Shown here piece by piece: positions 6,001 through 11,797 of a DNA stretch of 11,797 bases. The stretch's first letter is position 1. Every line of letters begins with the position of its first letter. Made by a program: the position numbers. This DNA comes from a virus (Duplodnaviria > Heunggongvirae > Uroviricota > Caudoviricetes). The stretch is from IMG/VR virus record IMGVR_UViG_2740892233_000017; one strand, 5' to 3'.

Positions 6001-9000
6001 ACCGGAGAGCTGGTTGACGCTTCCGGGATTTTCCGAAAATTATTGGTTGACGAATCTTTATTTTCCCGAAAGTTTCCGGACTGAAGCATGGCTTCGCGGC
6101 AATCGTTCCAGCCTGTAGCGTATGCAGCCGCTTTGCTGCTGCCTTCAACTGGCGCATCCTGCCAATACATTTCTTCCGGCACTATCGGCGCTGGAGGGGC
6201 GGCAAATAGATATCCGCCAAAGTCAGGAAGCTCTCTAATGGCCTGTACGAATTTTTGTTTGCCTACGTCAACCCCTAATGGGTAATGAGCTATAATCTTT
6301 GCCACCGGCTCTGCTTCCAGCGATGCCAGCGCAATCCGTGCCAGCTCTTCCGCTTCTTCTGCTGGAAGCACAACGTTGCTACCCGGTCCGTATGTTTCGC
6401 GCCAATGCTGGATTGTCAGCAGTCGATCTTTGGTAAAAGTGGTCATAGCTATTTCACCTTAATCTCAACATTTCGCAGCTTTAGCTCTACTGGCAGGTCT
6501 GACTTTCCTGTTAATGCTAATGCGAGATTTTCTGGAGTAGTGAGAACAGTTATTGTTTTCCCCCTCGCCAGACGAATAATCATGTGTATCTCGCTATCGT
6601 CACATGCTCCTGGTCGAACAATTGAGATTTGTCCGTTCATCTCACTCTCCTTTGATGCGAATGCCAGTAGCGCGGATTGCATCGATGACTTCAGAAACTT
6701 TGTATGCCATTACCGTTTGGTAATCATCGTGAAAATCTGTTCGATGNNNNNNNNNNCGGGCGTTCGGAATAAAGGAGCCTGACGTAGATTATCCAGTGAC
6801 GGTAGTCGAGGCTAAGGGCTTTCTTAAACTCATACCCACGTCTGCGGTAGTTATGAATCAGCCATTCGGCCTGTTCTTCAGTGCAGGGATCGTGCTGATA
6901 CCAGTCATATTTGAATGTGTGAGAACACCGCCCTTGCCTGCTGGCAGGGGCGATATCAGAATTGTGATGTTTGGTATTGTGCGCCATCGGTTTTCTCTGC
7001 TGGCGCAGCAGGTGCCAGTTGTTCAAGCTGGCGTGCGGCAATATTGTCTCTGATTTCTGTTGTCGTCAACAGGCAACGTGCTATCATCGAATGGTGTTCT
7101 ATCCTACTCCGTGAGGTTTACCATGCGTACAACCCAACAATTCAGCATTACATTAACTAACGAAATGGCTGACATGGTGCGCGCCCGTGTGGCTTCCGGT
7201 GCCTATGCTTCAGAAAGCGAGGTCATTCGTGAAGGGCTTCGCGCACTGAATGAGCGCGATAAAGCAATCGAAGCGTGGTTAACGCATTCAGCCGCCCCCT
7301 CTCTTGATTCTATCCGCGAAAATCCAAACAACGGACGCTCCATTTCACAGGTTCGCGCCGCGATTCGATCCGGGAAGTAATCTGCATGACATATGAAGTC
7401 ATCATTACTCCTGAGGCCGAACAACAAATAATCAACCTGCACAGGTATATAACGGAGAAAGCAGGGAACGTCATTGCTGACAATTATGCCAATGCGCTTC
7501 TTGATTATCTTGATGGGTTTTCTACATTCCCGCATCGGGGCAATAAACGCGATGATATTCGCCAGGGGATGCGGGTAACTCATTTCCGCCACAGAACGAT
7601 TATTGCTTTTGCCGTTGATAGCAGAAAAGTCTTTATTGTCGGTATCTATCATGGTGGGCAAAGTTATGAAACCGATTTCTTATAAACTTTTACCCACATC
7701 ATTCCGGTGTTAGAATTAACCGTCCGCCCCCTCTCTTACTGGCGGATTCGTAGGCTATATAAATCAAAGATCCCGGCTCATGTTTATGTCGGGATCTTTT
7801 TTCGGCGATTTATCCCCAGCGGCAAATCGAATACACCACCAGCGCCACCGCCATCGCAATTCCTACCGTTGTGAATGCTTCAGGCCAGGTCATCGTAAAA
7901 TATCCTCCACGCTTATCAGTCCGTTCCGCTCCAGATAACTCATCGCCTTATCCGGTAATTTGCAGTCTGGCTTCGCTTTCCTCAGTTGCCAGGTTAACTG
8001 CTTTACCAGCATGGTTAACTCATCGACCAGACGCTGATATCCCACTGGTTTGTATTCATGCAATTTACCGGCTGGCTCTGCTGCCAGCGATACCAGTGCG
8101 ATTTCCAGAACAGCAATATCCATCTTATATGTGCGGATGATGTCATGGTCGATTGTGCCCGGTATGCACAGTCTCTGTGTTTCAATAGTCTCCTCTGCGT
8201 GAGCTATTAACTGCTCTCTGGTAAAAGTCGTCATGCCGTAGCCCCTTCTTGATATTTTTCAAACCAGAACACAACTGGGTCAGATTTCATTTCAACCAAT
8301 CCCATACGAACCAGCGCTTTGCCTTTCCCGGACGCAAGGAATTCACGACGACCATCACTGATAATTCGCCGATAATCTTCCAGACTACTGCAATGCTTGT
8401 GCAGATTGCATGGGTGGCATGCCGGAACCATGTTGGATATATCGTCACGTTCCTGGTGAAGCATATTTCCATCAAAACGAATGACCGGTTTTACATGGTC
8501 TGCATGCCACTTTTCGCCAAGTTCGCAGCCGCAATAAGCACAGCGACCGCCGAACTTCATGCGCAGCTCTGCACGTTGTTTTTTCGTCAGTGCCATATCA
8601 GCTTTCCTTATACGGATTAATTTTATTGTGCAGTGTGCTGAACGACGCCCACACCACGTCGTTATACAATTCAATAACTGGCTCAATTATTTTCACGATA
8701 AACCAGACCAGTAATAGCGGGGGTATCGGTATCATCAACACGATAAATATAATGAGAAACAAAAATTCTGTCGCTCTACTTTTTCTCGGATATTCTTTTC
8801 TGAATAATGTAGTCATTTCTTACCGCCCTTTCAGGCGGCCTCCTGATGTTTTGAGGGTGCAGAAATCCCTCCGGTTAAGGATTAAATTTTTAACTAAATT
8901 TAATTATTCAGGCGCGATAAGCTGTTCCGCACAATCCAGCAATGCTTCTGTCGCTTCCTTAAGCGTTACTGTATCGCTATCATCCAGTCCTGCAACTTTT

Positions 9001-11797
9001 TCGTACCTGACAAACGCCGCGCAAAGCTCGTTAAACAACCCCGCCCGTACTTCAGCCAGGAAAGCGTCGGTGGCCGGAGTTTCAGGAATCCGTCTCCTCA
9101 TCCGTTCTATTGCATGATTGAACCCGAAATCTTCAGCAAGAGATACGTCATCCATATTGTCATTGTCGTCCTCAATATCCCGTGGTTCTGGAATTGCAGA
9201 CTTTATTACCGCATTCTCCGCCGCCAGCGCCACAAGATTAGCTTTCAGCTCTGCAATTCGTTTGTTTTGGGCTTCCCGTTCATCCAGTAGTGCCAGCGCA
9301 ACATTTGGATTAAAAGCAGCAATAAATTCAGCGTTTGCATAAGCCTGAACATCTGTTTCAACCAGGCAGTTAACATGACATTCTGCAATTACGCCACCGG
9401 GCTCTCCTTTCCATTTTTGACAAACAAAAACTCCTGTTATATTCCCATGCTGATTGCCCGATGTATGCCCTACGATGTAGCATCCTTTAGTTGCTTTCTC
9501 TGCTGCTTCACGCAGCGCCTGATAGTCAATCTCGCTCATTCATCGCCCCACTCATCACAATATGCTTCGACCGGATTTTTTCCTGCTTCATAATCATCAC
9601 GCCATGCTTCAGCATCAGCAGCACTGCCACCACGTAACTCTGCATATTCCATTAACAGTTCATGCCATTCTTCAAAACTGACGCTGTATTTAGTTGAACC
9701 AAAATCAGCCATTTTGTTCTTCCTCTTCGTCTTTTATTTCGTGATATGAATAATTGCAGTAGTTAAAGAAAATATCTTTTGCTTCGTCATGTATTTCATC
9801 AGGCGTCGCATCATCATCCACTTCGAATTCATCCTCGAAATCTCCACCGGCTATTCCCGTTTCAATAATTATTTTAAACTTTCGCATTTAACTACCGCCC
9901 TTTCGGGCGGCCTCCTGACATTAATCGTTGTGGTAACTCATGGCTTCATTTGCAACATCAACCGGATCAACCTCCCTCCAGCAATAATTTGGGTCGGCTC
10001 CTTCAGGCGTCCACGGTTCTAATTCATNNNNNNNNNNTTCCATTTGTTCACCACGGGTAAGCCCGTTTTCAAGCGGATTTTTAATGAACAATTCAATACG
10101 TTCTTTGGTAATAGTGGTCATGTGTTACTCCTTAACCCGCAGTGCTTTCAACTGATGAGGGGAACAAAATCTTTTCATCAAACCCTGCATTCATATCATG
10201 AACAGCAACACACCAATCCATCGACGAACGATTATCAAGAGCCTCCATGATTTCATCCATGCGGCGTAGGTCATACAGGTAAATGCTTTTATCGCCAATG
10301 GTGTAAAAGCCAATTTTTTTCGGTGATGGACAGCGATCAAGAACTTCCTGTAATTCGTTCAACCATGCCCGTTCTTTTTTTGTCAAAGTTGCCATATCAG
10401 TTTTCCTTATACGGATTAATTTTATTGTGCAGTGTGTTGAATGACGCCCATACCACGTCGGTATACAATTCAGTAACTGGCTCAATTATTTTTCCGATTA
10501 TCCAGACTAGGATTAACGGGGATATCGGTATCATCAACACGATAAACAGAATGAGAAACAGAAATTCTGTTGTTCTACTCTTTCGCGGATATTTTTTCTA
10601 AATAATGTGACCATTCATTACCGCCCTTTCGGGCGGCCTCCTGACATTAATCGTTGTGATAACTCATAGCTTCATTTGCAGCATCAACTGGATCAACCTC
10701 CCTCCAGCAATAATTTGGGTCGGCTCCTTCAGGCGTCCACGGTTCTAATTCATTTTTTGCCGCATTCTCATCGCCAGTAATTTTAAAAATCTGCTCAGAG
10801 AATTTTCTTGCCCACTCGTTATATTTTTCCGCATTAATGGCTTTCTGTGTATTTAACATAAATATACCTCCAGTTCAGGATTAGATTTTATTTACAGCGC
10901 TAAATTTATTTATTCAGTTCTGGATTTTGTCGCCCTGCGTATCCGCGCTTTCGCGTTACGTTCAATCTGAATTAACTTTTCTATATTTTTCCGCCTTTCC
11001 TGTTCCTCCTGGCGCAATAGCCTTACATCATCTGCCAGTCTGGTTTCTCTTTTCGCCACAGAGAGCATCCAGTCAAACGGCTCCACAACCGCACCGCAGA
11101 TTTTACAGCGGACCTGGCGCTCTTTTTCGTCAACCCGAACAGAGGCGTGATGACAATATGGTCTTTCCGATGGCTCATAAAGAAAATTAACCTGATTACG
11201 AGGGTCATCCTCTTTTACCGGAAATAAAACGATATTGCTTAACTCATCCTCTGGTTTTATTTCCATGCTCCTCTCCTTTGATGCGAATGCCAGCGACGCG
11301 TAATGCGTGTTCTAGGTCAATCAGGTAAAGCCAACTGCCATTTTCTTTAGGTATCATGACATGTCGCTCATCTGCATTTATCGGGTGTCCATATCGAAGG
11401 TCGTAGCGAGTCGGTAATTGAACTTCCCGCGCATCCAGTTCAGCAATACGCTTGCTCCCATCAGAGATAACGCCTTCGTAATACTCACGCTGCTCGTTGA
11501 GTTGTGATTTTGCTTCTTCCAGTCCATCCAGCAAACCAGCGATAATATCCGCTTCCCGATGACGGATATGACGCTTAAACGCAGCAAGAGCCGCATCACA
11601 ATCCCGTTCAGCATTTGGGCTGTCCGGGGTAGCCTGATACCACGCCAGCGTCGACTGATAGTTTTGTGCTGCCTCACGAAGCGCCTCATAGTTAACCTCT
11701 CTCATCGAGCCACCTCCTGATAAATCACCGCATGCCCCAGTTTCTCCGCCAGTGCCAGCTCTGCCTTAGCGCCCGCTGACCGCTGCCAGCCATTCAG

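Follow-up and report, generated by a model that had tools for sequence, protein, structure and literature searches.

The stretch of viral DNA examined here (IMG/VR record IMGVR_UViG_2740892233_000017, Caudoviricetes; 11,797 nucleotides in full, henceforth the window) carries two families of direct repeats among small accessory genes, an arrangement that the original prediction, made from the sequence by eye, ascribed to recent duplication and module exchange of gene cassettes. The window is very likely a scaffold of three contigs in which repeats belonging to different lambdoid prophages of one Shiga-toxin-type Escherichia coli have been brought together, the rest being explained by lambdoid mosaicism at a conserved junction element that recurs between neighbouring genes. 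The apparent local duplication is, accordingly, most likely an assembly artefact, in which look-alike modules of different lambda-like prophages were put side by side.

Repeat families in the window

Self-comparison of the window by BLAST aligned 8570-8846 with 10366-10644 (family 1; 86.8% identity over 280 aligned nt, 33 mismatches, 2 gaps, E = 7e-93) and 9893-10027 with 10619-10753 (family 2; 97.0% identity over 135 nt, 4 mismatches, E = 8e-61), and a separate repeat finder returned the same two pairs (D1, 87%; D2, 96%). Both pairs reported by eye are thus present at essentially the positions first given, and the pairwise alignment that had been proposed as their decisive test returned significant identity for each. 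The minus strand is the coding strand of all genes in the repeat-bearing part of the window. Family 1 is built around a gene for a membrane-type DUF4014 protein of 72 amino acids (aa), and the next gene encodes an HNH endonuclease in copy 1 but a protein of 87 aa in copy 2; family 2 contains the end of a 70-aa gene, after which comes a DUF7167 gene in copy A and the DUF4014 gene in copy B. The shared hairpin, ribosome-binding site (RBS) and gene-end segments, together with the differing flanking genes, agree with the initial description, as does a frameshifted copy of the membrane-protein gene, since DUF4014 copy 2 is one base short in an A-run. This frameshift is not a local sequencing error, because the same frameshift is annotated in a complete genome (locus L002, prophage B below). 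The repeats are therefore not in dispute as such: they are real paralogous modules of lambdoid prophages.

The first nine or so codons of the HNH endonuclease gene and of the gene for the unrelated 87-aa protein are alike (MALTKKQRA and MATLTKKERA; window 8594-8620 and 10366-10395), and the joint of exchange must therefore lie inside the downstream gene and not at the gene boundary.

Scaffold gaps and the origin of the three contigs

Two runs of exactly ten N, which went unnoticed in the first reading, interrupt the window at 6747-6756 and 10028-10037 and divide it into contig 1 (1-6746), contig 2 (6757-10027) and contig 3 (10038-11797). The second run begins directly after family-2 copy A and separates the two copies of each repeat pair; no pair in the window has both of its copies on one uninterrupted sequenced molecule, as the run at 10028-10037 intervenes, so that their placement at this spacing is a feature of the scaffold. 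The window comes from the terminal part of a draft whole-genome shotgun (WGS) scaffold, CCPX01000084.1 (47,654 bp; assembly GCA_000752875.1), and stops 2 nt before the end of that scaffold. Masking by the data provider was considered as the source of the N runs and rejected, since the deposited NCBI record CCPX01000084.1 has the same run. The flanks of the first gap lie in the interior of an ead/Ea22-like gene, where contig 1 ends, and in the interior of a hypothetical gene upstream of ParDE, where contig 2 starts.

The complete genome CP074958 of E. coli 03_3013 served as the reference for locating the contigs, with prophage A denoting its locus L003 and prophage B its locus L002. Contig 1 matches minus-strand positions 3541482-3548227 of CP074958 at 100% identity and represents the left arm of a wrbA-integrated Stx2-type prophage, found at 100% identity in E. 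coli O104:H4 as well as in 03_3013; in CP074958 it continues with an ead/Ea22-like gene (L005), followed by exo, RecT and gam genes, and not with contig 2. Contig 2 is 100% identical to prophage A (L003 6958-10228) on the plus strand, about 70 kb from the contig 1 match and in another prophage, where the sequence that precedes it differs from contig 1. The segment 10038-10800 maps to a third prophage, B, in the same complete genomes. Base-by-base comparison resolves contig 3 further, in that it equals prophage B over 10038-10875 and prophage A over 10690-11797, the switch from B to A alleles falling within a 186-bp stretch (10690-10875) that is identical in both prophages. Whereas contigs 1 and 2 match at 100%, contig 3 as a whole reaches 99.4% at best among 5,426 complete E. 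coli genomes.

The positions of the contig ends point the same way. Contig 2 ends 64 nt past the last base that distinguishes prophage A from prophage B, and the first base of contig 3 is the one that directly follows a 606-bp repeat common to prophage B and contig 1 (window 5742-6347). Two signs by which a mis-join may be recognized were found: gap flanks lie at different loci of a complete genome that matches at about 100% (contigs 1 and 2 about 70 kb apart and on opposite strands), and contigs break off where sequences with further copies in the genome begin or end (e.g., contig 1 ends inside the Ea22-like gene). Moreover, the equivalent of window 7800-11797 in the best-matching complete genomes measures 3,272 bp, versus 3,998 bp in the window, and the difference of 726 bp is the exact spacing of the family-2 copies. 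Prophage A carries each repeat once and is 726 bp shorter, the sequence at 10027 continuing there at 10754, and phage ArgO145 has the same single-copy order. The arrangement of the window was not found among the listed matches to independent complete genomes, the best matches being single-copy and 726 bp shorter. A recent duplication at this locus, as initially proposed, is consequently not upheld: the repeat pairs straddle the 10-N gap, the 100% matches to contig 2 are single-copy, and the second copies map to another prophage.

An apparent open reading frame (ORF) of 66 aa, read through the second gap with XXXX in its translation, is an artefactual fusion across that gap. Its 5' part, the fragment of a gene that begins MTTITKERIE..., runs on in prophage B (L002) into sequence equal to window 6347 and downward.

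Formation of the probable artefact and competing explanations

The arrangement would have arisen because the assembler could not resolve sequence common to several prophages. A small contig, contig 3, would have been made in which sequence specific to prophage B leads, by way of the shared 186 bp, into that of prophage A, so that 652 bp of prophage B (10038-10689) would be fused to the prophage-A sequence 10690-11797. The scaffolder would then have attached contig 3 to contig 2 with a minimal gap, probably because contig 2 truly precedes the prophage-A part of contig 3, and the repeats would thus have come to lie 0.7-1.8 kb apart. From this join would therefore follow the spurious 726-bp "insertion", the second repeat copies and the in-frame 66-aa fusion ORF; the reading frame is kept across a gap by chance in 1 of 3 cases. 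The prophages of enterohaemorrhagic E. coli are repetitive and paralogous, features that short reads cannot resolve (PMC5359411). Among short-read scaffolding artefacts of Shiga-toxin-producing E. coli, the window resembles those in which contigs end at repeats common to several lambdoid prophages and in which small repeat-bounded contigs (3.3 kb and 1.8 kb) are appended to a larger scaffold at its end, across N gaps of minimal length, and it shows no essential difference from that class. The assembly may be linked to the Norwegian study PRJEB6447 of Shiga-toxin-producing E. coli, for which Velvet or Allpaths-LG was used, but its accession does not appear in that paper. The remark in the original prediction that the repeats could drive misassembly proved apt, as the window itself is a scaffold of three repeat-bounded contigs in a draft WGS record.

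Several points weigh against this reading. The case against the scaffold join is made by comparison with complete genomes and not directly from reads, and the strain sequenced may be unlike all of the complete genomes compared. The order of contigs 1, 2 and 3 in the window is collinear with the Stx2a phage ArgO145, and the ordering may therefore partly reflect a real prophage. In addition, the spacing of the two cassettes in complete genomes that carry both, discussed below, is known for only 40 listed of 73 genomes.

One competing explanation is a real duplication or cassette insertion in cis, which would leave two DUF4014 modules and two 70-aa gene ends close by, with the N run hiding a short stretch. 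In its favor, the reading frame is kept across the N run; natural contigs can hold two junction elements in cis, 1.06-1.7 kb apart; and contig 2 alone has two junction copies, 1,072 nt apart and gap-free. A query of contig 2- and contig 3-specific sequence flanking the second gap further showed the DUF4014/87-aa and DUF7167 cassettes together in one prophage in 73 complete genomes. However, these genomes have a different intervening gene (118 aa) and no second 70-aa fragment, and the span measures 1,027-1,028 bp in all 40 of the genomes listed out of the 73, versus 691 bp implied by the window. Their arrangement is the natural order of the IMG/VR contig L124, namely 70-aa gene, junction, DUF4014, 87-aa gene, 47-aa remnant, 118-aa gene, long junction and DUF7167, an arrangement in which no second fragment of the 70-aa gene was found. 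The join of contigs 2 and 3 as drawn in the window does not occur among the listed matches from the 5,426 complete E. coli genomes; likewise, a pattern of 19 nt, any ten bases and 24 nt taken across the gap was found 0 times in 2.9 million viral contigs, 0 times in 32 million genome contigs and 0 times in 241 million metagenome records, a local control having established that N in the pattern also matches N letters. Furthermore, contig 2 is 100% identical to a single-copy prophage, both contig ends fall exactly at inter-prophage repeat boundaries, the retention of frame has a 1-in-3 chance, and insertion of the prophage-B cassette at this place would need an illegitimate joint inside two unrelated genes. 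A duplication in cis is henceforth regarded as extremely improbable.

Alternatively, contig 3 could be a genuine inter-prophage recombinant formed via the identical 186-bp stretch, with the left side of prophage B brought next to the right side of prophage A, for example by a chromosomal inversion between prophages, in which case the join of contigs 2 and 3 would still be wrong. The switch of single-nucleotide polymorphism alleles at 10690-10875 is clean, and phage recombinases act on homology as short as this (PMC3945230). Against it, the hybrid occurs at 100% in none of the 5,426 complete E. coli genomes, and an exact repeat of 186 bp exceeds the typical read of 100 nt. Exact repeats longer than the reads are where de Bruijn assemblers, if one was used for this record, would take wrong paths. 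A true recombinant is for these reasons considered unlikely, yet far less so than a duplication in cis, and an assembler chimera is tentatively preferred; in either case, the adjacency of contigs 2 and 3 is not established.

The junction element and cassette exchange

The repeats share a junction element that comprises a Shine-Dalgarno (SD) sequence and a hairpin. A 23-nt motif, AGGAGGCCGCCYGAAAGGGCGGT, occurs in three minus-strand copies in the window (8822-8844, 9894-9916 and 10620-10642), where 0 are expected from 200 shuffles. Alignment of one representative per flank combination delimits a conserved unit of about 64 nt, TTAATCCTTAACCGGAGGGATTTCTGCACCCTCAGAACATC followed by AGGAGGCCGCCCGAAAGGGCGGT, within which a core of about 27 nt consists of AGGAGG and a GC hairpin of 6-7 bp with a GAAA loop, with a start codon 5-10 nt further on. 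The 64-nt element is kept behind every upstream gene family with one exception: after the 70-aa gene, about the final 27 nt of the element are all that is retained. The 5' half of the element precedes the 70-aa gene (phrog_4659) and the 3' 27 nt follow its stop codon, and this gene therefore lies inside the element; in L124 (5841-5905), an uninterrupted element links the 118-aa gene directly to DUF7167.

The 23-nt core is found without mismatch in at least 120 IMG/VR contigs, and a Hamming scan of about 130 copies returned only three variants. In 122 occurrences among the IMG/VR matches listed, at least 8 gene families lie upstream and at least 6 lie downstream, forming 38 combinations, and the conservation profile falls outside the element, i.e., conservation is confined to the junction. 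In GenBank, 19 phages carry the whole 64-nt form, among them Rac, mEp460 and Stx2a phages. Comparison with related prophages for alternative cargo, as had been suggested, revealed three alternative genes behind DUF4014: the HNH gene (121 aa), the 87-aa gene and a 185-aa gene. Some phage contigs carry the order 70-aa gene, junction, DUF4014 and HNH, the product expected if the cassette between two junctions was lost or never gained. The module exchange initially proposed thus holds between prophages and across the phage population, as the 38 flank combinations attest, but not as a local event in the window.

In the divergent copies (L127-L130; window 8822-8840), five substitutions all lie in the 5' arm of the hairpin, and the 3' arm, GGGCGGT, is invariant. 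An odd host assignment was also encountered, as "Actinobacillus phage vB_Apl-pPE4" (PP818812.1) carries DNA that shares 92-96% identity with the E. coli lambdoid prophage genes described here, the junction element among them. A text search of the literature for the hairpin sequence and "DUF4014" found nothing, and a preprint on the prophage Pas-sRNA, considered as relevant, was set aside since it names no gene of this region.

The distribution of the junction suggests that it is probably a recombination linker for the swap, insertion and loss of cassettes. Its 27-64 nt of near-perfect identity would suffice for phage recombinases of the Red/RecT type, and prophages of this family also encode Exo and RecT. 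Redbeta requires homology over about 30 bp, tolerates 12% divergence, and produces mosaics between temperate and defective prophages (PMC3945230). The relaxed recombination by Rad52-like phage recombinases described there resembles the present case in that segments of a few hundred bp with 87-97% identity are shared by temperate and defective lambdoid prophages, and an element of 27-64 nt accords with the required minimum of about 30 bp; it differs in that the role of the element here is read from its distribution and not from recombination events, which also counts against assigning a linker role to the junction.

The boundary sequences of lambdoid phages (Susskind & Botstein 1978; Clark et al. 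2001) have been proposed to focus homologous recombination, as cited in PMC3029335. As characterized there, they resemble the junction as short conserved sequences at gene boundaries, in a non-structural part of the genome, with alternative non-homologous flanking genes; the junction is indeed short and conserved at gene boundaries, and has alternative non-homologous flanks with homology confined to the linker. A difference from the boundary sequences so characterized is that one joint here is displaced by about 25-30 nt into the downstream gene, within the shared MA(T)LTKK start. Possibly, the 64-nt element is among the seven boundary sequences of Clark et al. 2001.

A possible role of the junction in translation

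The junction is possibly also a hairpin-bridged RBS, as secondary-structure prediction suggests. In each of the three window copies, 22-23 nt separate AGGAGG from the ATG downstream, with no nearer canonical SD sequence; a stem of 7 bp with a GAAA loop is predicted between SD and ATG in both the minimum free energy and the centroid structures of each copy, and the hairpin is followed by spacers of TAAGAA, TAGTTAA or TAATGA. Among the 122 listed occurrences, six unrelated gene families have their start codons 5-10 nt past the hairpin. On the mRNA, the hairpin would loop out 16 nt and reduce the effective distance from SD to AUG to 6-7 nt, and the junction would thereby act as a portable RBS for whatever gene lands behind it. 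A precedent is provided by gene 38 of phage T4, in which a hairpin cuts the SD-AUG distance from 22 nt to 5 nt, as shown experimentally, and likewise by gene 25 (PMC3014915). The split RBSs of these T4 genes resemble the junction in their overlong SD-AUG distance (22-23 nt here, 22 nt in gene 38), which a hairpin shortens to about 6 nt (5 nt in gene 38); they differ in belonging to an unrelated phage group with unrelated sequence, whereas the present element is portable, stands before many unrelated genes and is predicted from sequence only. Other observations lend such a role little support: the hairpin z-scores of the three copies are modest (-1.3 to -2.5 in 71-nt context), and no covariation is seen, as not one compensatory change appears in six divergent copies of the near-invariant element, against 4 one-sided changes that preserve pairing and 2 single mismatches, with every change of the second hairpin falling in its 5' arm.

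The hairpin could instead be a transcription terminator or a known regulatory RNA. Its GC-rich stem, stable GNRA loop and intergenic location would suit either, as would the fold of the full element into two or three hairpins (z -2.6), which loosely resembles that of two-hairpin antitermination RNAs. However, no U-tract follows the stem on the coding strand, where TAAGAAATG, TAGTTAAATG or TAATGAATG is found instead; a terminator scan calls no minus-strand terminator at the three sites; Rfam has no match in 6757-11797 at E<=1; and the hairpin recurs two or three times in one operon, abutting start codons. An intrinsic terminator is rejected for want of the U-tract, and a terminator or known regulatory RNA is, taken together, very unlikely. 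With regard to the linker and RBS roles, it may tentatively be proposed that the two-hairpin junction of 64 nt is a portable dual-purpose element, serving both as a DNA homology patch for Red/RecT cassette exchange and as an RNA hairpin-bridged RBS; this combined role is rather doubtful. The location of the 70-aa gene inside the element and the invariant 3' arm would be footprints of such a dual purpose.

Features of the window

Features of the repeat-bearing part and of the scaffold are collected in Table 1.

Table 1. Coordinates of contigs, gaps, repeats, junctions and associated genes in the window
Start..end	Strand	Feature
6747..6756	.	10-N gap 1, joining contig 1 (wrbA and left arm of Stx2-type prophage) to contig 2
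6757..10027	.	Contig 2, 3,271 bp: ParDE, 114-aa gene, HNH, DUF4014, Ea22-like, 58-aa gene, DUF7167, 3' end of 70-aa gene
8231..8596	-	HNH endonuclease gene, 121 aa; 1 of 3 alternative genes after DUF4014
8570..8846	-	Family 1 copy 1: junction hairpin, intact DUF4014 gene (8598-8816), first ~25 nt of HNH gene
8822..8885	-	Full 64-nt junction between Ea22-like gene and DUF4014: TTAATCCTTAACCGGAGGGATTTCTGCACCCTCAAAACATC + AGGAGG + hairpin CCGCCT-GAAA-GGGCGG; SD to ATG 22 nt
9893..10027	-	Family 2 copy A: last 35 codons of 70-aa gene (phrog_4659) and junction hairpin; cut off by N gap
9894..9916	-	Junction core (SD and GAAA-loop hairpin) between 70-aa gene end and DUF7167
9921..10121	-	Apparent 66-aa ORF with XXXX: 5' end of truncated MTTITKERIE... 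gene (10038-10121) and 3' end of 70-aa gene (9921-10027)
10028..10037	.	10-N gap 2, directly after repeat copy 9893-10027; in deposited CCPX01000084.1
10038..11797	.	Contig 3, 1,760 bp in window; hybrid of prophages B and A
10132..10395	-	87-aa gene (phrog_1714), alternative cargo after DUF4014; first ~9 codons common with HNH gene
10366..10644	-	Family 1 copy 2: junction hairpin, frameshifted DUF4014 pseudogene (10397-10614), first ~30 nt of 87-aa gene
10619..10753	-	Family 2 copy B: same part of complete 70-aa gene (10647-10859) and junction hairpin
10620..10642	-	Junction core (SD and GAAA-loop hairpin) between 70-aa gene and DUF4014 pseudogene
10860..10909	-	5' half of junction element up to GGAGG, as RBS region of 70-aa gene

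Additional features were observed outside the repeats. Window 1-1910, the left end of the wrbA-integrated Stx2-type prophage, is 100% identical to E. coli O104:H4, and wrbA (1-579) overlaps the tyrosine integrase gene (576-1910). In the wrbA prophage, the interval that separates the antirepressor gene from the DUF551 genes contains an Rfam match to the small RNA sRNA-Xcc1 (RF02221; 65.4 bits, gathering score 53) at 5236-5325 on the minus strand. A pair of adjacent direct repeats of 31 nt (6011-6074; 33-nt spacing, 71% identity) is located inside a 298-aa DUF551-type ORF of contig 1, which is represented by two partial pseudogenes in the NCBI annotation of complete genomes. The ParD/ParE toxin-antitoxin pair (approximately 7123-7685, plus strand) is opposed to the surrounding minus-strand operon in a moron-like manner, and is also present in phage ArgO145 and in O26/O103 prophages.

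Implications

The value of the window is chiefly cautionary, in that the locus looks recently duplicated and actively rearranging, yet its duplication was most likely made by scaffolding. Calls of gene content, pseudogenes or "chimeric proteins" from this record (e.g., the 66-aa ORF with XXXX) are not trustworthy, and scans of raw sequence should take short N runs as breaks before repeats are read. That lambdoid accessory genes are shuffled at conserved junctions is an already known principle, of which the junction element offers a compact and testable example. The portable hairpin-bridged RBS is an only mildly new and unproven idea, which would be of modest interest to phage biologists if a role in translation were demonstrated.

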